A stretch of 64,000 bases of DNA from an uncultured Alphaproteobacteria bacterium (GTDB lineage Bacteria; Pseudomonadota; Alphaproteobacteria; HIMB59; GCA-002718135): assembly GCA_902584805.1 (NCBI GenBank), contig CACIBE010000002.1:67409-131408 (forward strand). The letters are read 5' to 3'. Below are positions 5,559-64,000 of the stretch, in pieces. How positions within the stretch are numbered: position 1 is the stretch's first letter; each line of letters begins with the position of its first letter. Below the pieces are notes generated by a model. That model saw nothing but the letters and a program-made list of their open reading frames with translations, was not told where the DNA came from and searched no databases. Both the position numbers and the translations under genes were made by a program.

Positions 5559-6461
5559 ATGAGTCAAAATTCTTATCTATATGCCTTTAGTGTAGTTTTT
5601 CTTGCTGGAATTTTTTGGAGTTTTGGAGCGTTGACTGTTAGATATATGGTGGATGGTCATCAATATGTTTTTCAATATTTATTTTATAGAGGCTTAACTA
5701 TTTCAATTATACTTCTTATATATTTATTCTTTCGTGAAGGATTTGCTTTTTATAAAAATTTTCTCAAAATAGGAATACCATCTATACTTGGAGGTTTATT
5801 TCTAGCAACAGCTTTTACTGGGTTCATTTTTTCTATTACTATGACTACGGCTGCCGTAACATTATTTATGTTAGCAGCGATGCCTTTTATTGCAGCCATT
5901 GTTGGTTATTTTGTTCTTGGCGAAATACTAAAAAGATCAACATTAATTGCAATGGTTGTAGCATTTATAGGTGTGTGCGTAATGATTATAAATGACAGTA
6001 TTTCTGGAACTGCTTTAGGTGCAATAATAGGATTTATTTCTGCAACAGGTTTTGCATTATACACGGTAACAATAAGATGGAAACCTGAAACACCAAAATT
6101 CACAACTGTTGTTTTAGCGGGAATATTTTGTACAATATTTGCGTTCTTTATTTTGGGCTTCTCTTTTGAACCTTTTATTCTGATGCCTGAAATAAATAGT
6201 TATTTGAGTATACTTCATGGAATAATTGTTGCAGCCGGCTTAATACTTTACAGTCTTGGAGCTAAATATTTACCCTCAGCTGAGCTAGCACTTTTATCTT
6301 TAATGGAAGTTGTTGGAGGAGTTCTGTGGGTTTGGCTTCCTATTTTTGGAATTAATGAAGTACCAAGTACAACTGTAATTATTGGAGGTTTCATAATAAC
6401 TTTAGCTGTAGTTTATTATGGTTTTGCTACTAGGCAGATTAATACCAATATTAAAACTTAA
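5559..6461 (+). CDS. EamA/DMT-superfamily transporter
   Basis: 300 aa with about 10 hydrophobic helices in two similar halves, typical of the drug/metabolite transporter (EamA) family. Confidence 0.75.
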
Positions 6462-8354: not shown

Positions 8355-9863
8355 ATGAAAGTTAGAGTTTTATCGAGAAAAAGTGACTTGGCAATAATTC
8401 AAGCACGTGAATTTTCCGATTATTTGCAATCAAAACATCCTTTTGTAGAAATAGAATTTTTAACAAGAAGTACTTCAGGAGATAAAGATCTAAAAACACC
8501 TCTTTCTGAAATGCCAACAGAAGGTGTTTTTACGAATGATTTAAGAGATGAATTAATAAATAACAAATGTGATTTAATTGTCCATTCTTGGAAGGATCTT
8601 CCAATTGAAGTTGGTGATAAAACTAAAATAGCTGCAACATTAAAACGAGCCGACAAAAGAGATATATTATTCTTAAAAAAAAATAAAAAAATGGATAGTA
8701 AGAAAATTACTATTCTTTGTTCATCACCAAGAAGACAATATAATTTAAAAAATTTTATTGAAAATTATCTTCCACAAAGGTTTGATGAAGTTTGCTTTGA
8801 AAATATAAGAGGTAACATACCCACTAGATTTAAAAAATTTTTGGAAAATCCTGACAGTGATGGTTTTATTGTTGCTAAAGCAGCAATTGATAGATTACTT
8901 TTGAATAATTATTCTGAATTCAATGAATTAAAAATAACTCTAAAAAAATTTATTAACGAATGTCTATGGTCTGTTTTACCATTGTCTATAAACCCTTGTT
9001 CTCCTGGACAAGGAGCTCTAGCGATTGAAACAAGAATTAAAGATAATAAACTTAACGAAATTTTAAATGATATTAATTTTTCCAAAGATTATTCGAATGT
9101 TATTCAAGAAAGAAATATTTTAAAAAATTATGGAGGGGGATGTCACCAAAAAATAGGAGTATCTTATATCTCACATAAATTAGGATTAGTTGTATCTAAA
9201 AGAGGTGAAGATGAAAACGGCAATCATTTTGAGAGCTGGGATTTTATTGATCCAAAAGATATAAGTTTTTCTAGTAATACAACAGCTGAAATTTATCCTG
9301 AAAATTTAAAAAATTATAAAATATTTTCTAGAAAACAATTAAATAAAAATGTCGATGATATAAATAATTTACAAAATAAATGTATTTATGTTTCACGAAT
9401 TAGCTCAATCCCAGATAGGTCAAAAATCCAATCAAATAATGTTATTTGGACTAGCGGTTTAAGAACGTGGAAAAATTTATCTGAAAGAGGTATTTGGGTT
9501 AATGGAACTTCAGATGGTTTGGGTGAGGATTTTGATAAAGATATTAATTCACTTACAAATAATCCTTGGGTTAAGTTAACTCATTCTCAATCTCCTGAAA
9601 GTTGGATAAAAAATAAAATTGAAACGTATCAATTGGAGTCTATCGATTTTGAAATAGATATAGAAAAGAAAAAGTACTTTTATTGGATGAGCAGTTCAGC
9701 TTTTAAGGCGAGTATCGATAAATATCCTAAAATTATAGAAAAATATCATTTTTGTGGCCCAGGAAATACTTACAATGAGATTAGTAAAATATTAGGTAAT
9801 GATAAAAATCTTTTTGTTGAGCTATCTTATGATAGTTGGAAGAAAAAATTACTAAAAGCCTAA
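8355..9863 (+). CDS. hemC: Hydroxymethylbilane synthase (porphobilinogen deaminase) with a C-terminal uroporphyrinogen-III-synthase-like extension
   Basis: HemC motifs are SRKSDLAIIQA, GDKDL, HSWKDLP, RGNIPTRFKK, PGQGALAIE, and the cofactor Cys region GGGCHQKIGV. The ORF is 502 aa versus about 310 for a stand-alone HemC. The last ~170-200 aa contain HemD-like strings (VIWTSGLRTW, YFYWMSSSAF, FCGPGNTYNEI). Confidence 0.85.
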   Translation: MKVRVLSRKSDLAIIQAREFSDYLQSKHPFVEIEFLTRSTSGDKDLKTPLSEMPTEGVFTNDLRDELINNKCDLIVHSWKDLPIEVGDKTKIAATLKRADKRDILFLKKNKKMDSKKITILCSSPRRQYNLKNFIENYLPQRFDEVCFENIRGNIPTRFKKFLENPDSDGFIVAKAAIDRLLLNNYSEFNELKITLKKFINECLWSVLPLSINPCSPGQGALAIETRIKDNKLNEILNDINFSKDYSNVIQERNILKNYGGGCHQKIGVSYISHKLGLVVSKRGEDENGNHFESWDFIDPKDISFSSNTTAEIYPENLKNYKIFSRKQLNKNVDDINNLQNKCIYVSRISSIPDRSKIQSNNVIWTSGLRTWKNLSERGIWVNGTSDGLGEDFDKDINSLTNNPWVKLTHSQSPESWIKNKIETYQLESIDFEIDIEKKKYFYWMSSSAFKASIDKYPKIIEKYHFCGPGNTYNEISKILGNDKNLFVELSYDSWKKKLLKA

Positions 9864-9865
9864 AA

Positions 9866-10864
9866 ATGACAAATATTTTATTCGAAAATGCTCTCAAAAG
9901 AAATATTCAAAAAACACCACCCATTTGGTTCATGAGACAGGCTGGAAGGTACCATTCGCATTATCGCAAGCTCAAAGAAAAATATACTTTTGAAGAACTT
10001 TGTAAAACTCCAGATCTAGCGGCAGAAGTCGCTTTTGGTCCAATACAAGAGTTTGATTACGATATTGCAATTTTATTCAGTGATATTTTATTTATCTTGG
10101 AGGGACTTGGATTAGAATTAAAGTTTGACCCAGGACCGAAATTTAATTCTTATATAAATTCAGAAAACATTAATGATTATAGTAATATTGATCGTGGCAT
10201 TGAGCATATGCAATTTCAATTTGAAGCTATAAAAATAACAAAAGAGAAATTGCCAAATAATAAAAGTTTAATTGGATTTGTTGGTGGACCTTGGACATTA
10301 TCAAAATATGCATTTGGAAATAATAACTCTGATTTAATCGACACTAAAATGAATTTAAAATTTATTTCAAAAATTCTTTTACCCCTTCTAAAGAAAAATA
10401 TTCAATTACAATTAGATGCAGGTGTTGAACTTGTCATGATTTTTGATAGCTCTTTGTATGATTTAGATATAATAAATTTTTATGAAATTTATTCAAAAAT
10501 TTTGGAAGAAATTGCAATTTCTTTTCCAAATAAACTTGGCTATTATTCAAGAGGTAAGAGTTTAACAGATCTAAATTCTATCATCAGTTTTCCCTTTGCT
10601 GGTTTTGGCTATGATCATACAATAGATCTTAAATTTATGTTTGAAAATCAAAAACATGGATTTATTCAAGGAAATTTCAATGAACAATTAATGTTGAGTG
10701 AAACAGATACATTTCTTAATGATTTAAAAGATTTTATTGAAAAAATGAAATCAATTGAAAATCTTAATGGCTGGATTTGTGGCCTTGGACATGGAATTAA
10801 CAAAAATACTCCAGAAAAAAATGTTCATTTATTTATAGAAAATATCAGAAAAGAATTTAGCTAA
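9866..10864 (+). CDS. hemE: Uroporphyrinogen decarboxylase
   Basis: Signature PPIWFMRQAGRY near the N-terminus. The ATG at 9866 lies 2 nt after the hemC stop, so I prefer it to the overlapping track start at 9836. Confidence 0.9.
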   Translation: MTNILFENALKRNIQKTPPIWFMRQAGRYHSHYRKLKEKYTFEELCKTPDLAAEVAFGPIQEFDYDIAILFSDILFILEGLGLELKFDPGPKFNSYINSENINDYSNIDRGIEHMQFQFEAIKITKEKLPNNKSLIGFVGGPWTLSKYAFGNNNSDLIDTKMNLKFISKILLPLLKKNIQLQLDAGVELVMIFDSSLYDLDIINFYEIYSKILEEIAISFPNKLGYYSRGKSLTDLNSIISFPFAGFGYDHTIDLKFMFENQKHGFIQGNFNEQLMLSETDTFLNDLKDFIEKMKSIENLNGWICGLGHGINKNTPEKNVHLFIENIRKEFS

Positions 10865-10869
10865 TAGAT

Positions 10870-11895
10870 ATGGTTAAATATATAGGTGAAAAAGATTATG
10901 AGCACGGGAGTAAAGAAAAAATTGGTGTTTTAATTACTAACCTAGGCACTCCAGATGCTCCAAATAAAAAAGAACTAAAAGTTTATCTTAATCAATTTTT
11001 GTCAGACCCTAGAGTAATCGAATTACCTAAAATCTTATGGCAAATTATATTGAAGCTAGTAATTTTACAAATAAGACCATCAAAGTCAGCAGAAGCATAT
11101 AAACAAATTTGGACTGATAAGGGTTCTCCACTTTTAGATATCGCAAACAGACAACTAAATAAAATCCAATCATCTTTTTCTTCAAAAAATGAAAATATAG
11201 TTTTTGAAGTTGGGATGCGTTATGGCAATCCATCTATTCCAGATGCTTTGTTAAAACTTCAAAAAAAACAAGTAAGAAGATTATTAGTTCTACCTATGTA
11301 TCCGCAATATTGTGCTGCAACAACAGGTAGTACATTTGATGAAGTAACAAATGTTTTACAAAAATGGCGTTGGATACCTGAAATGCGTTTTATCAATCAG
11401 TACTTTGAAGAAAAAAATTATATTGAAGCATTGTCAAATTCAATAAAGTCATTTTGGAAAAAAACTTCAAAACCACAAAAAATTATTTTTAGTTATCATG
11501 GTATACCAAAACGGTATTTGACTAATGGTGATCCGTATCATTGCTTTTGTCTTAAAACCACAAGACTTGTTAAAGAACATATGGGATTATCCGATGATGA
11601 GATAATGACTACTTTCCAAAGTAGATTTGGAAGAGAGGAATGGTTAAAGCCATATACAAGTGAAACATTAAAAGAATTACCAAAACAAGGGATTAAAAAT
11701 ATACATATAATATCTCCTGGTTTCAGTAGTGATTGTCTTGAAACACTGGAAGAACTTGAAGAAGAAAATAAAGAATATTTTATGGAGTCAGGTGGAGAAA
11801 ATTATCATTATATACCTTGCTTGAATGATCACGATGATCACATAGACGTTTTTGTAAATCTGATAAAAAAACATACTCAAGGTTGGCCATTATGA
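10870..11895 (+). CDS. hemH: Ferrochelatase
   Basis: GVLITNLGTPDAP, LPMYPQYCAATTGS, FSYHGIP, PGFSSDCLETLEE. Length is typical at 341 aa. Confidence 0.9.
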   Translation: MVKYIGEKDYEHGSKEKIGVLITNLGTPDAPNKKELKVYLNQFLSDPRVIELPKILWQIILKLVILQIRPSKSAEAYKQIWTDKGSPLLDIANRQLNKIQSSFSSKNENIVFEVGMRYGNPSIPDALLKLQKKQVRRLLVLPMYPQYCAATTGSTFDEVTNVLQKWRWIPEMRFINQYFEEKNYIEALSNSIKSFWKKTSKPQKIIFSYHGIPKRYLTNGDPYHCFCLKTTRLVKEHMGLSDDEIMTTFQSRFGREEWLKPYTSETLKELPKQGIKNIHIISPGFSSDCLETLEELEEENKEYFMESGGENYHYIPCLNDHDDHIDVFVNLIKKHTQGWPL

Positions 11896-12701
11896 TTGCA
11901 GATCCCAAATTTAATACTGCAAAACAATGGTTTGAAAAATTACGAGATAACTTAGTTGAAACTATTCAAAACATTGATGAAAATCAATTTGAAATAAGTA
12001 ACTGGGATCACAAAGGTGATGGTGGTGGTAAAATGAGTAAAATTAAGGGGAATATTATTGAAAAAGGTGGAGTAAATATTTCTACCGTATCTGGGACATT
12101 TAACGAAAATATGAGAGATACTATTCCGGGTGCTAAAGAAGATCCAAATTATAATGCAACCGGCATCAGTGTTGTATTACATCCTGTTTCACCTAAAATT
12201 CCTTCTATGCATTTTAATACAAGATTTATTAAGACCACTCAGGAATGGTTTGGTGGAGGCATGGATATTACACCTTGTGTAATATTTGAGGATGAGAAAA
12301 AATATCATCGTGGTTTAGAAGTTTTGTGTAATAAATATGATAAATCATATTATCCTAAATTTAAAAAATGGTGTGATGACTATTTTTTTCTTAAACATAG
12401 AAACGAACCAAGAGGTGTTGGAGGAATATTTTTTGATTACCTTCAAACTGGCGATTGGGGAAAAGATTTTGAATTTGTTCAAGGCGTAGGTACTTATTTT
12501 CATCAGTTTATCAAAAATACTTTAATTGCACTTAAGGATGAGGAGTGGAATGAAGAGGAAAAAAAGATACAATTAGTTAAGCGTAGTCGCTATGCTGAAT
12601 TTAACTTATTATATGATAGAGGTACAAAATTTGGTCTAGAGACTGGTGGGAATGTTGATGCTATATTAATGTCAATGCCTCCTCACGCGGTATGGGAATA
12701 A
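11892..12701 (+). CDS. hemF: Oxygen-dependent coproporphyrinogen-III oxidase
   Basis: GGGKMSKIKG, EKGGVNIS, HPxSPxIPSMHFNTRF, WFGGGMDITP, RGVGGIFFDY. The ATG at 11892 forms an ATGA overlap with the hemH stop. The track start at 11883 is a TTG. Confidence 0.9.
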   Translation: MIADPKFNTAKQWFEKLRDNLVETIQNIDENQFEISNWDHKGDGGGKMSKIKGNIIEKGGVNISTVSGTFNENMRDTIPGAKEDPNYNATGISVVLHPVSPKIPSMHFNTRFIKTTQEWFGGGMDITPCVIFEDEKKYHRGLEVLCNKYDKSYYPKFKKWCDDYFFLKHRNEPRGVGGIFFDYLQTGDWGKDFEFVQGVGTYFHQFIKNTLIALKDEEWNEEEKKIQLVKRSRYAEFNLLYDRGTKFGLETGGNVDAILMSMPPHAVWE

Positions 12702-12704
12702 ATA

Positions 12705-13124
12705 ATGTTATTTAATACTCTGAAAGTTATTCATATTTTTAGTATCATAGCTTGGATGGCTGGACTTTTATATCTGCCACGTTTGTTTGTAAATCATGCT
12801 AATCCTGAAATCACAAAAGAAACCTCAGAAACATTCAAACTAATGGAAGGAAAATTGTACAGAATAATTATGTTTCCAGCTTTTATAGTGACGTGGATAT
12901 CAGGTTTTACACTTACACATTATGTGGGTATTGATACTTGGTTGCTTTTAAAAATTTTATTTGTAATTTTATTATCTGGCTATCATTTTTTTTGTTTAAA
13001 ATGTCTTAATGATTTTAAAAATGATAAAAACAAATACTCTACTAAGTTTTTTAGAATTACAAATGAAGCGCCAGCAGTAATATTGATTTTTATACTTATA
13101 CTTGTTGTATTTCAGCCTTTTTAA
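12705..13124 (+). CDS. hemJ: HemJ-type protoporphyrinogen IX oxidase (UPF0093/CopD-like membrane protein)
   Basis: LKVIHIFSIIAWMAGLLYLPRLFVNH is the characteristic HemJ N-terminus. 139 aa, 4 TM helices, terminal gene of the heme operon. Confidence 0.8.
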   Translation: MLFNTLKVIHIFSIIAWMAGLLYLPRLFVNHANPEITKETSETFKLMEGKLYRIIMFPAFIVTWISGFTLTHYVGIDTWLLLKILFVILLSGYHFFCLKCLNDFKNDKNKYSTKFFRITNEAPAVILIFILILVVFQPF

Positions 13125-24265: not shown

Positions 24266-25205
24266 TATCAAAAAATACTAATAATAAAGATAGTGTAAAA
24301 AAACTAACAAACGTACTTAATACTACATTTGAAGATACAACAGCTTTTAGTGAATTATATCTATATGCAAAATAATATGATTGTGAGCCACTTGGTAAAG
24401 CTGCAGCCATAGTAACAATAATTACTAAGAGACTATCAAGCTCTAATATAAAATGTGCTAAACAAAATGCAATTATAGGGTGAATAAAATTTTTTAAGAT
24501 AGTTAATAGTATTGCACCATAAATATTTTCTCTAATTTTAAAATTTCCTAATGCAAGACCTAAAGAAATAAGAACCATTGGAAGAGCAAGGTTTACAAAA
24601 ATATCTAAAGGCTGCTTCATAATAGATGGAACAATAAGATTAGAGTAATTAAGAATGATTCCAATTATCATTCCAAAAAGTACAATATTTTTAATTATAC
24701 CTAATAATATTTGATAAAAAATTTCGACAATGCTTTTTTTTCTATTTCTATAAACTTCTATTATAATAACAGTATAGCTAAAATGAACAATACCATGAAA
24801 AAAAACTAATATCATATAAGGAATTGTATTTATTGGACCCAAAACTGCATACATAAGAGGTATTCCCATTGCCACCGTATTACCAAAACAAGCAGCTAAT
24901 CCAAAAAGTGCAGAGTCATCTGTTTTAAAATTTAAATATTGTTTTCCAATTAAAAATCCAGTCATGGATATAAAAATTCCTGAAGCAAAAAATGAGATGA
25001 TCAGGCCAATAGAATTAATTTGAGGAAATGAGACTTGCCAAAAATATATTATTAAAGCTAAGGGTAAAAGAATATTGAAACCTGTAAAATCAAAATAATC
25101 AATATATTTTTTTGGAAGTATTTGTAATTTATTTACAAAAAATCCAAAAAGAATATATCCAAACACACTGCTAACTATATTTAACAAATCAATCATTGAA
25201 ATCAA
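24258..25205 (-). CDS. AEC-family (auxin efflux carrier-like) transporter
   Basis: 315 aa, about 10 TM helices in two halves, pattern typical of the Mem_trans/AEC family. Confidence 0.7.
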   Translation of the reverse strand: MISMIDLLNIVSSVFGYILFGFFVNKLQILPKKYIDYFDFTGFNILLPLALIIYFWQVSFPQINSIGLIISFFASGIFISMTGFLIGKQYLNFKTDDSALFGLAACFGNTVAMGIPLMYAVLGPINTIPYMILVFFHGIVHFSYTVIIIEVYRNRKKSIVEIFYQILLGIIKNIVLFGMIIGIILNYSNLIVPSIMKQPLDIFVNLALPMVLISLGLALGNFKIRENIYGAILLTILKNFIHPIIAFCLAHFILELDSLLVIIVTMAAALPSGSQSYYFAYRYNSLKAVVSSNVVLSTFVSFFTLSLLLVFFDIK

Positions 25206-26067
25206 AAAAGTTATTTAAAAATTGAATGACGCTTTCTTCAATTATATTATTTTCATTTGAGTTTGAATTTTGAAAAAATTTTGAATTTTCATCAAAAATT
25301 ATATTAGGATTATTTAAGTTTCCTTTTATCAAAGTAGTTAAATATATTTCATTATTTTGAGATAAGTTTAAAATAATATCTATAAAATTATTATTGTAAT
25401 TGTATTCTCCTTTTATAAGAATTCTGTTGTTTTTATTACTAATTTCTATTTTGCTAGTTTCTAAAATATTTTTATTTTTATTTATTGCGCCTTTAAAATT
25501 AGAACTTTCATTACCAAAAGCATTTATTAATTCAGAAAATGCAAATTTTTGATTCTTTTGATTTTCTAATTTTTCAAAGAATAATTTTAAAAATGAAATA
25601 AGAAATTTTTCTTCATTAGTTGTTTTTAAAGTTATTTTTCCATTTATTTTATAAATTGAGTCAAATAAATTTTCTAAATTATCAGTATATTTAAGATAAT
25701 TTTCAATATAATTTACTTTTCCATTAATATTTACCTCACTAAAATTAATATTATTAATATTCAAATTATCAATTAGAATATTTAAATTTCCTGAAACTTG
25801 AAATATGGGCTGAGAAATATCAATTCTAATATTATCAAAGTATAAATTATTTTTGTAATCTTTAATTTCTAAGTTTGTGTTAAGCTTTACAATTGGAAAA
25901 ATATTGATTTTAGTTTTATTTTTTTCATTAATTTTAATTTCAAATTTCTTTTCGATGTCACTAATTATTTTTTCTTTTTCAAAATTATTTAGAAAAATAT
26001 AAATAAAGATAGATAAAATTATTAAAATAATTACTACTATAGAAAAAAATAATCTAATTTTTTTCAT
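25189..26067 (-). CDS. Membrane-anchored N/I/K-rich hypothetical protein, possibly a miniature AsmA-like protein
   Basis: N-terminal TM anchor. INIFPIVKLNTNLEIKD resembles the AsmA N-terminal motif, and IKGNLNNPNIIFD resembles the AsmA C-terminal motif. The composition is very biased. Confidence 0.35.
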   Translation of the reverse strand: MKKIRLFFSIVVIILIILSIFIYIFLNNFEKEKIISDIEKKFEIKINEKNKTKINIFPIVKLNTNLEIKDYKNNLYFDNIRIDISQPIFQVSGNLNILIDNLNINNINFSEVNINGKVNYIENYLKYTDNLENLFDSIYKINGKITLKTTNEEKFLISFLKLFFEKLENQKNQKFAFSELINAFGNESSNFKGAINKNKNILETSKIEISNKNNRILIKGEYNYNNNFIDIILNLSQNNEIYLTTLIKGNLNNPNIIFDENSKFFQNSNSNENNIIEESVIQFLNNFFDFND

Positions 26068-56990: not shown

Positions 56991-57272
56991 ATGTCAATGA
57001 GATGTGAATTAACTGGAAAATCATTCCAAACTGGTAACAACGTTAGTCATGCCAAAAATAGAACAAAAAGACGTTTTAAACCAAACCTTCAGAACATTAC
57101 TTTTGTTAGTGAAGTTTTGGGGCAAAATTTTCAACTTAAAGTTGCAGTTAGTACTATACGTACAGTAGAAAAAAAAGGTGGATTAGATGAATTCCTCATC
57201 AATACACCAAACTCTAAATTGCCCTTAAAGGCTAAAAAATTAAAAAAAACTATTCTATCTAAATCTAATTAA
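56991..57272 (+). CDS. rpmB: 50S ribosomal protein L28
   Basis: RCELTGKSFQTGNNVSHAKNRTKRRFKPNLQ is the L28 signature region. Confidence 0.9.
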   Translation: MSMRCELTGKSFQTGNNVSHAKNRTKRRFKPNLQNITFVSEVLGQNFQLKVAVSTIRTVEKKGGLDEFLINTPNSKLPLKAKKLKKTILSKSN

Positions 57273-57281
57273 ATTTTTGTA

Positions 57282-58022
57282 ATGGGTTTTTTCTTTGAAT
57301 TAACAACAGTACTTAATTCACTAAGCACTGAACTAATGTGGTTCATAATGCTCCTATTTTGTTTTTTTTCTATTCTTATTTTTTTAAGAATATTTGGATA
57401 TATAGGAATTTTTATCTATTCTGCACTGGCTGTAATTGCAGGAAATATTCAAGTTTTAAAAACAGTAGATTTTTTTTATTCACCCGAACCGGTAGCTTTA
57501 GGAACCATACTTTTTGCTTCCACATTTTTATGTACTGATATTTTATCTGAATATTATGGCAAGAAAAAAGCTAGAATGAATATTTTAATTGGTTTCAGCG
57601 CATTCTTATTTATGACTTTATTAATGGTAATTACTATTGGGTTTCAACCATCAGATGCTGATTGGGTACAAGAGAGTTTATCAAATGTATTTACTCCAAT
57701 GACAAGATTTTTCATAGCTAGTATGATAGCATATTTAATAAGCCAATATTTTGATGTTTGGTTCTTTAACTACTTGAAACAAGCTTTATCAGACAAGTCT
57801 CTCTGGTTAAGAAATAATTTATCTACTATTACCTCCTCTTTGGTTGATAACACTGTCTTTAGTATATTTGCTTGGATCTTATTAAATCCTGAACCAGTAA
57901 GTGTGTATAATGTCATAATGATTTATATTTTTGGCACTTATCTTCTTAGAATATTTATAGCTCTACTTGACACTCCCTTTATATATATAGCTAAGTTTTT
58001 TGTCCCAAAAAATAATGACTAA
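57282..58022 (+). CDS. yhhQ: Queuosine-precursor transporter (YhhQ/DUF165, VUT family)
   Basis: 246 aa, 6 TM helices, FLCTDILSEYYGKKKA and SQYFDVWFF motifs typical of YhhQ. Confidence 0.75.
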   Translation: MGFFFELTTVLNSLSTELMWFIMLLFCFFSILIFLRIFGYIGIFIYSALAVIAGNIQVLKTVDFFYSPEPVALGTILFASTFLCTDILSEYYGKKKARMNILIGFSAFLFMTLLMVITIGFQPSDADWVQESLSNVFTPMTRFFIASMIAYLISQYFDVWFFNYLKQALSDKSLWLRNNLSTITSSLVDNTVFSIFAWILLNPEPVSVYNVIMIYIFGTYLLRIFIALLDTPFIYIAKFFVPKNND

Positions 58023-59214
58023 CTTTTCTTGGAAAGTTAAAAAAACAAATAAACATAATAAAGCAAGAACAGGAAAAATTTCTACACCACATGGTGATAT
58101 TGAAACTCCAGCATTTATTTTTTGTGCAACAAAAGCTGCACTAAAATCTTTCACTACACTTGAAGCAAAAAAAAATAATACACAAATTATACTATCTAAT
58201 ACATATCATTTAATGCTTCAGCCGGGTAGTGAACTAATAGCTCAGCATGGAGGTCTTCATAAATTTACGGGTTGGGATGGCCCTATGTTAACAGATAGTG
58301 GTGGATTTCAAATTTTTTCTCTTGGACATGGCTCAGTTGCTGATGAAATTAAAGGACGCAAAACTAATTCAAAAAATAAAAAAACTTTAATAAATTTGAA
58401 TGAAGAGGGGGCATTATTCAAATCTTATATAGATGGTTCTACTCACATGTTATCTCCTGAAAAATCAATAGAGGTTCAAAGAAATCTTGGAGCAGATTTA
58501 ATTTTAGTTTTTGATGAATGCACTCCTTATAATGTAAATAAAACATATACATCTGATTCTATGTTAAGAAGTCATAGATGGTCTTTAAGATCCATTAATG
58601 CATTTAACTCTAAACTTAATTATAGTCCTAAAAACGGCTCAGCTGGTAGACAAGAAATGTATGGTATTATTCAAGGAGGGATTTACAGAGATTTAAGAGA
58701 AGAAAGCATTGAATTTAATACAAAAAAAATCAACACTTTTGGAATTGCTATTGGCGGAAGTTTAGGATCAAATAAAGATGAAATGAAAGATATAGTTCAT
58801 TTTACTTCTTCTAAATTAGATAATACTCGTCCAGTACATTTACTAGGTATAGGTGATCCAAGGGATATATGGGATTTTGTTGCAGATGGAATCGATACAT
58901 TTGATTGTGTAAGCCCAACTAGAATTGCTAGACATGGATCAGCTTTAGTAAAAGGTAAACAGGGAAAAATAAACTTAAAAAATGTTAAATATAAAAATAA
59001 TTTAAACCCAATAGATAATAAATGTAATTGCTATACTTGTAAGAACTTTACACTGGCATATTTATATCATCTTTTTTCTGCACAAGAATTACTAGGATTA
59101 CAATTGCTTACTAATCATAATATATATTTTATGAATAATCTTATGAAAGAAATTAGAAGCTCAATTGATAACAATGATTTTGATAATGCAAAAAAGAAAT
59201 GGTTAAATTCTTAA
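58015..59214 (+). CDS. tgt: tRNA-guanine transglycosylase (queuine/preQ1 tRNA-ribosyltransferase)
   Basis: [31 protein letters not shown], and Zn site CNCYTC...H. I prefer the ATG at 58015; it overlaps the yhhQ stop. Confidence 0.9.
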
Positions 59215-60992
59215 TTATCTAATTGAAAAGTAGCAGATAATTGATTTAGTAATACTTCGCCTAACTGATCGACATCCATTATTGTTACAGCTTTACTATA
59301 GTATCTTGAAACATCATGCCCAATTCCTATAGCAATTAATTCAATTTCATCTTTTTTTTCAATTTCACCAATTATATCTCTCAAATTTTTTTCTAAATAA
59401 TTACCTGGATTTACAGAAAGTGTTGAGTCATCAACTGGAGCACCATCACTTATAACAATAAGAATTTTTCTTTTTTCCTTTCGAAAAGATAATCTATTAT
59501 AAGCCCACGATAGTGCTTCTCCATCGACATTTTCCTTCAAAATTCCCTCTTTTAATAATAAACCCAAATTTTTCTTTGATCTCCTCCATGGTGAGTCTGC
59601 AGATTTATAGATAATATGTCTTAGATCATTTAACCTGCCTGGATTAGAAGGCTTTCCATTTTTGATCCATTTTTCTCTAGAATTACCTCCTTTCCAAGCT
59701 TTGGTTGTAAACCCTAATATTTCAGATTTAATTAAGCATCTTTCCAATGTTTTTGCTAAAATATCTGAACAAAGGGCAGCAACCGTAATTGGTCTACCTC
59801 TCATTGAACCTGAATTATCAATTAGAAGACTCACAATAGTATCTTTAAATTCAACTTCTTTTTCTATTTTGTAACTTAATTTATTATTTGGATTAGCAAT
59901 AATTTTAGCTAATCTTGACGTATCAAGAAAACCCTCTTCCATATTAAAATCCCAATGACGATTTTGCTGAGCTAAAAGTTTTCTTTGTAGTCTATTGGCA
60001 ATTTTAACAATTAGTGGCTGAAAAGAAAATACTTGTTGATCAAGATTTCTTCTAAGCTTCTCTAATTCTTTGATATCACAAAGTTCTTCAGCATTAATAA
60101 TTTCATCAAAATTATAATCATAAACTTTATAATTCTCTAAATTCTCTAAAATTTTTCTATCTGGTAAATAATCTAATTCAATATCCCCACTTTCTTCTCC
60201 CATATCATCATTTTCTTCTAATGAAACTGACTGCTCAATATCTGTTTCACTTGTTTGCATTTCAATATTTGACTCAGTTTGTTCATCATTTTTTTGTTCA
60301 TCATTATTTTCATTTTCATTATCTTGATCTTCATCGTTTTGATTAATATCTTCGTTCTGAGTATTGTTTACACTGTTATTAAGTAATCCAAGTTCATCTA
60401 GTTTTTCAACTATTGTAGATGTATATTTTTCCTGATCATGTAGACATTTCTTTAGATCTATAAAAAAGTTTGAATAATCTTTTTTTAATTTTTCTTTTAC
60501 AATTTTTTTAAAACTACTATTAATTTCACCTAAGTCTACGCCAACAATTTCTTCAAATGCTACGTTTTTAAATGCATTAATTAATAAATTTTGATCTTTT
60601 TTAGTATTTCCAATTTTAAGATCTCTAATATACTTATTCTTTAGATTTTTTTGTATTCCCTTGAATTCACTACTACCTATAGCTTCTACTCGTGCTTGTT
60701 CCAAAACATTAATTATTTCGTTTGATAATTCATCTTGATTTAAAAAGTTTTGGTGTATGTCTTTTGAATGCAATCTGAACTCTAACGCAAAAGAGTCCGC
60801 TTCAGCTCTTAAATATTCTAGATTATTTTTGAAATTTTCAATTTTTGGTTCAGTTAGATTTATAGTGTTACCAATAATTGAAGGATTTTCTTTAACAAAA
60901 TTAACCTCTATATCTTCTTTTTTACCTATTGATTTTATTGTAGCACTTAATGACTTTTTAAAATTTTCAATAATTTCGCTATTCTTTGACAT
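59211..60992 (-). CDS. cobT: CobT-like protein (acidic low-complexity region plus C-terminal von Willebrand A domain)
   Basis: N-terminal CobT-type region, poly-acidic D/E/N/Q stretch ([21 protein letters not shown]), and vWA/MIDAS start LLIDNSGSM. Confidence 0.8.
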
Positions 60993-61962
60993 TAGCTACC
61001 TTAGCATCAGTAATATCAATTCCAAATGACCTTTGAAAATATTCCTGTAAGATAGATCTCTCCATTTCATCGCATCTATTTAAAAAAGATAGTTTAAAAG
61101 AATATTCTATATCATTGAATAGAAGATAATTTTCTGCCCAAGTCAATACAGTCCTTGGACTCATAACAGTTGAAATATCACCATTAATGAATCCTGATCT
61201 AGAAAGATCTGCAGTAGCTACCATGCATTTAACGATTTCTTTACCATCCTTATTATTAAGTTTTTTTACTTTACTTAAAATAATATTTATTTCTTGCTCG
61301 TTACTAAGGTAATTTAAAGTTGATACAATATTCCATCTATCCATTTGACCTTGGTTTATTTGTTGAGTACCATGATACAAACCAGATGTATCACCAAGAC
61401 CAACAGTGTTTGCTGTGGCAAACAACCTAAAAAATTTGTGAGGTTTGATTACTCTTGATTGATCCAATAGAGTTAATTTACCTTCTGACTCCAAAATACG
61501 TTGAATTACAAACATTACATCAGGTCTGCCTGCATCATACTCATCAAACACTAAAGCTACAGGATTTTTGTATGACCAGGGAAGTATACCATCCTGAAAC
61601 TCTGTCACCTGTTTATTATCTTTGAGTACGATAGCATCTTTGCCAATCAAATCTATCCTGCTGATGTGGCTATCTAAATTAATTCTAATACATGGCCAAT
61701 TAAGTCTGGCTGCTACTTGTTCGATATGAGTAGATTTACCAGTTCCATGGTATCCTTGAACCAAAACTCTTCTATTAGAAGAAAAACCAGCAAGTATTGA
61801 AAGAGTTGTCATTGGATCAAAAATATATGTTTGATCTATTTCTGGTACGTGTTCAGTTTTTTCTTTAAACTTATAAACCTCAAAATCACAGGAAACCCCA
61901 AATGTTTCTTTGGGATCAATTTTGATACTAGGAGATATTTCTATATTTTTTTTATCAGTCAT
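60979..61962 (-). CDS. cobS: CobS-like AAA+ (MoxR-class) ATPase
   Basis: [39 protein letters not shown] ... [20 protein letters not shown] ... [14 protein letters not shown]...[16 protein letters not shown] is near-consensus CobS. Confidence 0.9.
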
Positions 61963-62542
61963 TTTTAAATTTTTTTAAAAGTATTTTGTATGAGTTATTT
62001 ATTTCCTTAAACTTTTCTTCTGCTTTTTTATCGTTACCATTTACATCAGGGTGAAATATTTTCACTAGTTTTTTGTAAGTTTTTTTAATTTTATCCAATG
62101 TCAATGGTAGATCTAGATTGAATAATGATAGAGCTGCACTTTCTTCTTTTGTAAGATTTTCATCAACCAGCTTATTTCTAAAGTAATTATTCTCTCGTTC
62201 ATTTGGATTTAAATCGTTCATTTCTTCGTTAAAAAAATTGTTAATTTGATCCATAACTTTGTGATAATTTCCCTTTAATGGCCAAGATGGCCTGTTCCAA
62301 ATAATATCTTCTCTCATTGAATTCTCAATTTCATTAACTGACAATCCTTTGTAAAAATCCCATGACTTATTGTATTCCTTAATATGTTCCATGCAAAAAT
62401 AATAATATTGATTTAACAAAACTCTAGATTTTGGCGCTTTGAACTTACCTTCACTATTACAATCTTTGTTATCACATTTTCTAAAAAATGTTTTTTCCCA
62501 AGAAAGACTATTTTTATTAATATCTATTTTATGTTTACCCAC
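61955..62542 (-). CDS. J-domain protein with an N-terminal Cys/His-rich region
   Basis: C-terminal J domain with HPD (KKTYKKLVKIFHPDVNG...KFKEINNSYKIL). The N-terminus is CDNKDCNSEG...YYFCMEHIKEYNKSW. It overlaps the cobS-like start by 8 nt. Confidence 0.8.
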   Translation of the reverse strand: MGKHKIDINKNSLSWEKTFFRKCDNKDCNSEGKFKAPKSRVLLNQYYYFCMEHIKEYNKSWDFYKGLSVNEIENSMREDIIWNRPSWPLKGNYHKVMDQINNFFNEEMNDLNPNERENNYFRNKLVDENLTKEESAALSLFNLDLPLTLDKIKKTYKKLVKIFHPDVNGNDKKAEEKFKEINNSYKILLKKFKND

Positions 62543-62565
62543 ACCTATTATATAGTTTAAAAATA

Positions 62566-62820
62566 ATGAATCGTAAGCAAAGAATTGATAAAATATTGTT
62601 AAATAAATTTGATAATTTTTTAGTAGAAATTATTGATAATTCAAATTTACATAAAGGGCATAATAATTTTACCGGTAGTGGTGAAACTCATATTAAGATT
62701 ATTTTGACGAAAAAAGATAATTCCTCATTAAATAGATTAAATATTCATAGAATTATTAATAGTTTACTTGAAGAGGAATTTAAAACTGGGTTACACTCTT
62801 TAGAAATAAAAATTAATTAA
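62566..62820 (+). CDS. bolA: BolA-family protein
   Basis: 84 aa. DNSNLHKGH ... HIKIIL ... HRIINSLL ... LHSLEIK fits the BolA fold consensus. Confidence 0.75.
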   Translation: MNRKQRIDKILLNKFDNFLVEIIDNSNLHKGHNNFTGSGETHIKIILTKKDNSSLNRLNIHRIINSLLEEEFKTGLHSLEIKIN

Positions 62821-64000
62821 TTTTTGATATCTCAACCTTTGATATTTGTTTCTTTGAATGAGATAAAATTTTATAGTTAAAGAAATTATCTTTAAAAGAC
62901 TCTCCATATGAAGGTATTTTTTTTGAAATATCTAAAATATATCCAGCTATTGTTGATGACTCAATTTCTGGGGGATCTAAATCAAAACTTTTATACAAAT
63001 CTCTAATATTTTTCTCTCCATTAACTATAACTTTTCCATAGTTATTCAGTTTAAAATCATTTTCAGGAACATCAATTTCATCGACAATTTCTCCAACTAT
63101 TTCCTCAATAATATCCTCTAATGTAATTAAACCTAGTAATTCACCAAATTCATCCACAACAAATGCTAAATGTTCTTTTCTTTTTTTAAATTCAACTAAT
63201 TGCTCTAATAAATTTGTAGTCTCAGGAATAAACCATGGACTAGAAATTTTATCAAAAATTATTTCTTTTGATTCATTTTGATTTTTTAGATCTATATTTA
63301 ATGTTCTAACATTTAATAAACCAATTATATTTTCAGGATTATCCTTCCAAAATGGTATACGTGTATATCTAGAATTATTTATTTTATTAATAATTTCATT
63401 AGTATTTAATGATGAATCTATAGAGTAAATATTTTTTCTATGAGTAAAAATTTCTTCAACAGTGATATCATTTAATTGCAATATACTTTGTAGCATATCT
63501 TTTTCTTGTTCATAATCTGGATTTGATGTTTTATAGAGATCTATAACTCCTTTTAATTCTTCCTCTGACTGAAGATCTTTATTTGTTATATCATTATCAT
63601 TATTTCTAAAAATTAATCTAACAATTAGATTAATTACAAATACAAAAACAAATAAAATTTTGTTTAAATAATAAATAATAGGCGAAATTAATAATGCTGT
63701 TCTATTTGGTCTATTTATAGCGTAAGTTTTAGGCAGAACCTCAGCAAATATTACAATTACAACTGTCATGATTAGAGTTGCATAAAAAATACCTTCTACT
63801 CCAAAAAGATCATAAAAAAATGCTGTGGCTAATGATGACGCTAGAATATTAACTAAATTGTTAGATAGCAGTAGAGTAGATATTACATTATCTTTTTTAT
63901 CAAGTAGCTCAAGTACATATCCAGCTCTCTTACTACCTTTTTTTTTCTTATAAAGAATTCTTGCTTTAGAAGTTGCAGTGATTGCTGTTTCTGATCCAGA
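62813..64000 (-). CDS. HlyC/CorC-family transporter (DUF21-CBS pair-CorC_HlyC; TlyC-like), 5' end beyond the window
   Basis: The C-terminal CorC_HlyC and CBS regions are in the 318-aa track ORF. Reading the same frame upstream of M(63769), I find it stays open to position 64000. It encodes SGSETAITATSKARILY...LLSNNLVNILASSLATAFF, the DUF21 N-terminal domain. The gene is therefore truncated by the window edge, not by a start at 63769. Confidence 0.85.
   Translation of the reverse strand, partial: SGSETAITATSKARILYKKKKGSKRAGYVLELLDKKDNVISTLLLSNNLVNILASSLATAFFYDLFGVEGIFYATLIMTVVIVIFAEVLPKTYAINRPNRTALLISPIIYYLNKILFVFVFVINLIVRLIFRNNDNDITNKDLQSEEELKGVIDLYKTSNPDYEQEKDMLQSILQLNDITVEEIFTHRKNIYSIDSSLNTNEIINKINNSRYTRIPFWKDNPENIIGLLNVRTLNIDLKNQNESKEIIFDKISSPWFIPETTNLLEQLVEFKKRKEHLAFVVDEFGELLGLITLEDIIEEIVGEIVDEIDVPENDFKLNNYGKVIVNGEKNIRDLYKSFDLDPPEIESSTIAGYILDISKKIPSYGESFKDNFFNYKILSHSKKQISKVEISKIN

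Follow-up and report, generated by a model that had tools for sequence, protein, structure and literature searches.

A J-protein–cobS–cobT locus from a SAR11-type genome as a candidate CobN-independent AAA+/vWA machine

Here we describe a four-gene locus in a 64,000-nucleotide stretch of DNA from an uncultured alphaproteobacterium (contig CACIBE010000002.1 of assembly GCA_902584805.1, positions 67,409 to 131,408 of the forward strand; hereafter the window). The locus encodes a BolA protein, a J-domain protein (J-protein) and orthologues of CobS and CobT, and represents, in SAR11, a gene block ancestral to the Alphaproteobacteria. By sequence and synteny, its CobS and CobT are truly orthologous to the proven motor and adaptor of cobaltochelatase, not mere paralogues. 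We tentatively read the locus, with somewhat less than even confidence, as a CobN-independent AAA+/von Willebrand factor A (vWA) remodelling machine with a client other than CobN and a possible link to metals, probably aided by Hsp70 via the J-protein. We file it as a MoxR-type AAA+/vWA motor–adaptor system that is CobST-orthologous, has a dedicated J-protein and whose known effector is absent from the window.

The three genes of the putative machine lie on the minus strand. The cobT orthologue (59211..60992) encodes 593 residues with the Pfam domains CobT (E-value (E) 8e-39) and CobT_C (E 6e-94), the cobS orthologue (60979..61962) encodes 327 residues with AAA_5 and CobS_N, and the J-protein gene (61955..62542), which starts with GTG, encodes 195 residues with DnaJ (E 3e-13) as the sole Pfam match. 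On the plus strand and divergent from the J-protein gene lies bolA (62566..62820), encoding 84 residues (Pfam BolA, E 7e-16), across a spacer of 23 bp (62543..62565). The BolA protein scores 58.8 bits against PF01722 (cut-off 25.7) but falls far under the E. coli BolA equivalog (32.6 versus a cut-off of 137).

Every motif that an earlier reading of this DNA, made without database searches (the sequence-only reading), had claimed for CobS, CobT and the J-protein was located. CobS is an AAA+ motor of the AAA_5 or clade-6 type, with the Walker A motif GTGKST at residues 73–78 (61729–61746) and Walker B and its neighbours at residues 140–149 (61516–61545). CobT consists of an N-terminal M48C-like domain, an acidic disordered linker (residues ~205–285, ~60138–60380; 32% D/E), a shaft and a vWA domain. 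The MIDAS motif of the vWA domain, DNSGSM, occupies residues 392–397 (59802–59819), and further MIDAS residues are the N in KENVDGEAL (59511–59537) and the D in ISDGAP (59436–59453).

Both proteins align closely with their Brucella melitensis counterparts: CobS matches the structure PDB 9ujv with an E of 1e-148, residues 7–320 being aligned gap-free, and CobT matches PDB 9uka with an E of 1e-156. Interface residues were taken from a structural preprint on Brucella melitensis CobS and CobT (cryo-electron microscopy and crystal structures) and read off residue-level alignments. The shaft-binding residues of CobS (S102, I104, D110, I112 and R147 in Brucella numbering) are all identical here, and five of the five MIDAS residues are kept in CobT (Brucella D422, S424, S426, N518 and D546). 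The contacts that CobS_S makes with CobT_N are kept or conservatively changed on both sides, that is, D263, E308, Q311, R312 and E317 (to D) of CobS and F25, R34 (to K), R76, D80 and N130 of CobT. With interfaces and motifs intact, the SAR11 proteins should assemble in a Brucella-like manner, as a hexameric ring with bound CobT. Against the NCBIfam equivalogs, CobS matches TIGR01650 with an E of 3e-160 and 533 bits (cut-off 558.55), and CobT matches TIGR01651 with an E of 1.5e-191 and 638 bits (cut-off 759.05); neither cut-off is reached. The description of CobS as near-consensus is thus fair for a very strong equivalog match, but one that stays under the curated threshold.

Conservation within the block is highest for CobS, with 63–67% identity between SAR11 and other orders, compared with 44–47% for CobT, 46–51% for L28, 53% for Tgt and 36–42% for CorC. 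Between SAR11 subclades, identity is 86% for CobS, 74% for CobT and only 55% for BolA. Within CobT, the vWA domain shares 68–71% identity between SAR11 and other orders (78–87% among other orders), whereas the N-domain shares 23–26% (34–56% among other orders); between SAR11 subclades, the N-domain is 62% identical. The β3–α2 loop of CobT, compared for a possible loss of CobN contacts in SAR11, has the form (R/K)LPxxP(K/R) in seven other species, whereas SAR11 has NLTEP(K/N)I; part of the motif returns when the alignment is moved by one residue, and no CobN-contact residues are given in the preprint.

CobN has an expected size of about 1200–1300 residues, and no cobN was found in the 64-kb window, which is what the search covered; the largest open reading frame (ORF) there, of 815 residues, encodes a DAO/GCV_T protein. 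A Pfam scan of all ORFs of at least 120 residues detected no cob or cbi gene in the window besides cobS and cobT, precorrin enzymes and CobW included, and in an Rfam scan of the same 64 kb no family reached its gathering score, the cobalamin riboswitch among them. The earlier observation that no CobN or cobalamin genes lie nearby is therefore true for the whole 64 kb. To our knowledge, SAR11 genomes lack CobN and a corrin pathway. Given that absence, a motor–adaptor pair that is intact and strongly constrained argues for a client independent of CobN. A published remark has Pelagibacter escaping dependence on B12 by scavenging. The inference that these genes are unlikely to form a cobaltochelatase gains from the 64 kb without a cob gene but, since the proteins are orthologues of the chelatase subunits, it narrows to the claim that no CobN client is present here, which comes from general knowledge of SAR11.

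In the CobST mechanism, a CobS hexamer hydrolyses ATP and grips the CobT shaft, and the vWA/MIDAS face of CobT relays the work of CobS to a bound effector. This effector is CobN in B12 producers and would most likely be a different client in SAR11. The J-protein most likely binds the client or the complex with an N-terminal Cys/His knuckle and recruits DnaK through its HPD J-domain; it would act as an accessory helper, not as an obligatory subunit. We consider it the likeliest accessory factor because its gene is the one most tightly linked to cobS. The output would probably be protein remodelling or metal loading, needed mainly under metal stress; a metal-related output is suggested only by the bolA and corC neighbours and by the cobT phenotype of Caulobacter described below.

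The knuckle of the J-protein spans residues ~21–88 (62279..62482, minus strand) and contains C23-x4-C28 (62459–62476) and C50-x2-H53 (62384–62395), and its J-domain is C-terminal (residues ~132–195, 61958..62149, minus strand), with the HPD motif at residues 164–166 (62045–62053). The DnaJ Pfam score is 50 bits (cut-off 27.8). DnaJ models match residues ~147–192 only, and the protein lies far under the DnaJ equivalog cut-offs. As it has no class I or class II layout and its J-domain is C-terminal, we assign it to class III. In the AlphaFold2 model, the knuckle (residues ~21–80; predicted local distance difference test scores 81–90) forms a β-hairpin and two helices, and a disordered linker connects it to the helical J-domain (helices 132–141, 149–163 and 172–194). 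No Pfam model matched the knuckle, and a Foldseek search against the PDB gave no fold match for it at E < 1, the nearest entries being generic small zinc-ribbon proteins. Across 106 distant family members, the residues C, C, AP, C, H, N, W and HPD are invariant, and HPD is found in every full-length member. SAR11 homologues share the start MGKHKID with the GTG-initiated protein of the window. The family comprises 1008 representative clusters (E <= 1e-10) and 5225 related clusters at 90% identity, and carries generic database names only ('J domain-containing protein', 'hypothetical', DnaJ or CbpA labels). Ten J-protein representatives of AT-rich appearance, looked up as possible Rickettsiales members, bore only metagenome or MAG labels. 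In the window, the intact HPD J-domain suggests that the J-protein recruits Hsp70 (DnaK).

Lone, more divergent J-protein paralogues, away from cobS/cobT and bolA, are found in Rhizobium and Pararhizobium chromids (locus L083, 5962–6570; locus L092, 4920–5528), one beside rpsU and one among sulfur/methionine genes. Among phage records, no knuckle module was found save one partial match, in a human-gut phage contig (MT835859.1, 12355–12486), which covers knuckle residues 22–66 only (47% identity, E 7e-8).

The block corC–bolA<>J–cobS–cobT (<> denoting divergent genes) is common to SAR11, Rhizobiales, Rhodobacterales, Sphingomonadales and about 80 Rhodospirillales-like genomes, with (aroK–aroB–)corC–bolA<>J–cobS–cobT(...vut–rpmB) as the wider order. 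An exact J-protein match with the same neighbours is present in contig CACFPL010000004.1 (GCA_902568185.1). A SAR11 relative (locus L084) has accA...aroK–aroB–corC–bolA<>J–cobS–cobT–tgt–vut–rpmB, and S. meliloti has accA–xerD...aroK–aroB–corC–bolA<>J–cobS–cobT...vut–rpmB, in which J, cobS and cobT are smc00699–00701 (cobS and cobT smc00700 and 00701); a Rhizobium sp. shows the S. meliloti order. In Cereibacter/Rhodobacter the order is bolA<>J–cobS–[two small ORFs]–cobT, which in R. sphaeroides corresponds to RSP_1976–1979 (cobS and cobT RSP_1977 and 1976). In Z. mobilis, published data place cobT–cobS–J in one transcription unit (ZMO1543–1545), with bolA1 a few genes off, and the same CRISPR interference (CRISPRi) study reports homologues of all four genes in seven of the seven 'Tractable Alphas'. 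A J-domain/bolA linkage confined to this strain would, by its own account, have refuted the sequence-only reading; linkage of J, bolA, cobS and cobT is found in other SAR11, Rhodospirillales-like genomes, Sinorhizobium, Rhizobium, Cereibacter/Rhodobacter and Zymomonas, so the reading is not refuted on this count.

To quantify these linkages, relatives were collected by a profile search (one genome per species) with an alignment of 41 J-protein sequences; the best 80 of at least 600 matches, all Rhodospirillales-like, were analysed. The J-protein gene is followed by cobS on the same strand in all 79 loci that have a downstream flank (80 fetched). cobT comes after cobS in all but a handful of these loci, where it is absent (L073 and L075) or lies beyond the contig end. 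A divergent bolA is found upstream of the J-protein gene in about 56 of 77 Rhodospirillales-like loci, and also in Sinorhizobium, Rhizobium, Paracoccus and Cereibacter. About a quarter of the Rhodospirillales-like loci have lost bolA but kept J–cobS, so in this group the J-protein gene has a closer tie to cobS than to bolA. The J–cobS adjacency also outlasts insertions that split cobS from cobT. Such inserts were considered as partners and rejected, as they are a GxxExxY element and small hypothetical ORFs. The Azospirillum insert (L017, 8691–9071) encodes a GxxExxY protein (TIGR04256, E 3e-39), and the Cereibacter insert (L090, 6689–7349) holds two small hypothetical ORFs, apparent counterparts of the transposon-tolerant RSP_6027/6028 of R. 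sphaeroides. Four contigs of metagenome-assembled genomes labelled Flavobacteriales, Actinomycetota or Bacteroidota (L001, L002, L013 and L018) carry bolA<>J–cobS–cobT with J-proteins 53–70% identical to the Rhodospirillales-type query, and are probably mis-binned.

The J-protein gene overlaps cobS by 8 nt, ATGACTGA, and cobS overlaps cobT by 14 nt, ATGTCAAAGAATAG. The arrangement of three overlapping minus-strand genes 23 bp from a divergent bolA had been described from the sequence alone, and the coordinates agree. The overlaps had also been taken to indicate translational coupling. We rejected them as a sign of any special coupling, because overlaps are common in the window, which is about 95% coding: overlap is seen in 14 of its 41 same-strand neighbour pairs, whose median gap is 2 nt. 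In Rhodospirillales-like loci, medians of 125 and 56 nt separate the same genes, and the corresponding gaps in S. meliloti are 75 and 49 nt. As the genes are separated in other orders, the overlaps reflect SAR11 compaction rather than a coupling device that has been conserved. Among the eight divergent spacers of the window, the 23-bp one is the shortest; it recurs in the SAR11 relative L084, where bolA ends at 5977 and the J-protein gene, whose product is 74% identical, starts at 6001. No terminator-like site was seen on the minus (coding) strand inside the J-protein gene, cobS or cobT, and promoter-like matches were no commoner than in shuffled sequence.

Published genetics bears on each of the three genes. 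In R. sphaeroides, cobS and cobT are almost without transposon insertions, like cobN, cobW and the precorrin genes, whereas bolA (RSP_1979) is insertion-tolerant; cobN, cobS and cobT of S. meliloti each appear to be essential. B12 synthesis, which does not require the J-protein, explains why cobS and cobT are essential in these two species. The operon is also present in Z. mobilis, whose supplementary gene tables, two files of which were covered in part, show no cobN, precorrin, cobyrinic or cobW entry. In Caulobacter, transposon mutants of cobT (CCNA_01367) are viable, with a fitness drop in EDTA and reportedly under copper stress. The Z. mobilis and Caulobacter data, and the commonness of cobST pairs in tailed phages, hint at a role outside B12 synthesis that involves metals.

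Several observations weigh against a CobN-independent, J-assisted machine. The absence of cobN holds for the 64 kb of the window. The J-protein gene of R. sphaeroides (RSP_1978) bears 50 transposon insertions and is dispensable where cobS and cobT are essential, so the J-protein is not obligatory for CobST action. In Z. mobilis, aerobic CRISPRi gave log2 fold-changes of about −0.08 for cobT, −0.11 for cobS and −0.02 for the J-protein gene; knock-down without a growth defect indicates no essential housekeeping role, and mutants so far are without a strong phenotype. Paracoccus ferrooxidans (L082) keeps bolA<>J without adjacent cobS and cobT, metK and lnt coming next, which shows that the J–cobS link is breakable in Rhodobacterales, and the lone J-protein paralogues stand apart from the pair altogether. 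No client candidate emerged from the neighbourhoods: clustering of the flanking ORFs of the 80 loci, noisy because of high-GC shadow ORFs, gave only aroK, aroB, corC and bolA. Finally, conservation extends over the entire stretch between accA/aroK and rpmB, so adjacency may mirror inherited order as much as shared function.

This last point leads to the strongest alternative, which we regard as rather unlikely but as a serious contender: CobST would be CobN-independent, while the J-protein and BolA would be mere neighbours through an inherited and compacted order, the J-protein working with BolA or another client. The dispensability of the J-protein gene, the arrangement in Paracoccus and the lone paralogues are as expected if the genes are only neighbours. 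So are the ordinariness of overlaps in this genome and the extent of the block, which exceeds four genes and takes in unrelated functions (aroK, aroB, corC, vut and rpmB). Mere neighbourhood accounts less well for the same-strand J–cobS adjacency in every locus with a downstream flank despite insertions between cobS and cobT, for the single transcription unit of Z. mobilis, and for the loci that drop bolA and keep J–cobS. The Hsp70-linked AAA+/vWA system that the sequence-only reading had proposed is partly supported: the pair is intact and strongly constrained, but the data from R. sphaeroides, the arrangement in Paracoccus and the knock-down in Z. mobilis weaken the proposal. In the transposon data from Rhodobacter and Caulobacter, to which that reading had pointed as a check, cobS and cobT are essential and the J-protein gene dispensable in the former, and cobT mutants are viable in the latter.

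An ordinary cobaltochelatase is improbable in our view, whether other parts of the genome supply CobN and a sufficient late corrin pathway or CobST serves a salvaged intermediate. Such an enzyme would explain the orthology to bona fide chelatase subunits and the wholly intact interfaces. The missing linkage to cobN proves nothing alone, because B12 producers also keep cobS and cobT far from cobN: in S. meliloti and R. sphaeroides, cobN and other cob genes are unlinked to cobS and cobT, which sit in the same block as here. It is harder to reconcile with 64 kb lacking any other cob or cbi gene or a B12 riboswitch, with what is generally known of SAR11 and the remark on scavenging by Pelagibacter, with CobS and CobT scores under the equivalog cut-offs, and with the more diverged N-domain of SAR11 CobT. 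Decay after the loss of a B12 pathway, with the genes as relics without present function, is very improbable: the silent knock-down in Z. mobilis and the lack of a known partner would fit, but the reading frames are intact, the catalytic motifs complete and CobS and CobT better conserved between subclades than BolA, in a genome so densely coding.

The CobN-independent machine that we favour can be set beside several known systems. The closest is the aerobic (class I) cobaltochelatase CobN–CobS–CobT of Brucella, 'Pseudomonas denitrificans', Sinorhizobium and Rhodobacter, which it resembles in sequence, synteny, ATPase motifs, shaft residues, the CobS_S–CobT_N interface and MIDAS. It differs in the absence of CobN, a corrin pathway and a riboswitch from the window, in its sub-cut-off scores and in its diverged CobT N-domain; in addition, the enzyme is described without a J-protein, which is dispensable for it in R. 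sphaeroides. MoxR-type pairs (NorQ–NorD, CbbQ–CbbO, CoxD–CoxE and RavA–ViaA) share the plan of a hexameric AAA+ motor and one vWA/MIDAS adaptor acting on a separate effector. CbbQ and NorQ are distant relatives of CobS (E 1e-7 to 5e-4), and the structural preprint draws the same analogy. Those pairs adjoin their client genes (nor, cbb, cox), whereas no client gene is linked in this locus. We know of no MoxR-type pair that carries a dedicated J-protein. Midasin/Rea1 is the best non-CobS PDB match of CobS (E 6e-32, over the AAA_5 module) and follows the same logic of an AAA_5 ring and MIDAS in pulling factors off a complex. However, it serves eukaryotic ribosome assembly as a single chain of 4700–4900 residues with six fused AAA modules, so that the likeness is at domain level only.

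Pairs of cobS and cobT without cobN are also widespread in tailed viruses (cyanophages, pelagimyophages infecting SAR11, Roseobacter and Rhizobium phages and archaeal tailed viruses). Phage CobS belongs to a different clade, being at most 37% identical to the CobS of the window, and the J-protein knuckle is absent from phages, the partial match above aside. The published idea that phage cobST hijacks a host CobN fails for SAR11 hosts, if SAR11 indeed lacks CobN. Class III (C) J-proteins with a metal-binding module (HscB/Jac1 and DPH4) offer an analogy for the J-protein, combining an HPD J-domain with a small Cys/His module that presumably directs Hsp70 to one client; here the J-domain is C-terminal and the knuckle has no Pfam model or PDB fold match. 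An anti-phage defence ATPase (IetA/IteA) was rejected as an identity for CobS, which matches the P-loop stretch only, with 23 bits against an IteA cut-off of 510. In PADLOC, CobT and BolA had no match, and the J-protein had one marginal, unrelated match (a Type I specificity subunit, E 7e-4, 16.5 bits).

A broader hypothesis, which we hold to be speculative and unlikely as it stands, is that CobST serves the Alphaproteobacteria primarily as a core remodelling machine, linked to Hsp70 by the knuckle J-protein, with a conserved non-corrin and perhaps metal-dependent client, cobalt insertion with CobN being a secondary recruitment in B12 producers. If true, it would add a new AAA+–Hsp70 partnership and account for the orphan cobST genes of SAR11, Zymomonas and phages. 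A literature search found nothing on the J–cobS–cobT block, the J-protein family or, for SAR11, orphan cobST. It is routine to take cobS and cobT as markers of B12 synthesis in genomes, metagenomes and lists of phage 'auxiliary metabolic genes'; if CobST works without CobN in one of the ocean's most abundant bacterial groups, B12 inferences drawn from these two genes are wrong. A conserved alphaproteobacterial AAA+/vWA machine would then await its client, and an unnamed family of thousands of clusters without a fold match would gain its first functional context. Caulobacter, Zymomonas and Rhodobacter have the same block and are genetically tractable.

The conserved flanks of the locus are rpmB (56991–57272; Pfam Ribosomal_L28), a VUT-family transporter gene (57282–58022; Vut_1) and tgt (58000–59214; TGT), all on the plus strand, and, on the other side, a corC/CNNM-type transporter gene on the minus strand (62813..63769; CNNM, CBS and CorC_HlyC). 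The listed corC ORF is N-terminally cut, as its CNNM match begins at profile position 93 and the homologue in L084 has 415 residues; its true start probably lies past the window end.

Elsewhere in the window, the Rfam scan (1–64000) found no tRNA, riboswitch or other known RNA gene at gathering score. Two ORFs lack a Pfam match at E < 0.01, 1961–2986 (341 residues), directly upstream of the gene for a 616-residue OmpA-domain protein, and 25189–26067 (292 residues). A haem cluster, hemC–hemE–hemH–hemF–hemJ (UPF0093), with a class II ferrochelatase, occupies 8355–13124. Its hemC ORF is 502 residues long; the porphobilinogen deaminase model covers residues 3–234, and the C-terminal ~270 residues, which have no Pfam match, could be a divergent fused uroporphyrinogen-III synthase.

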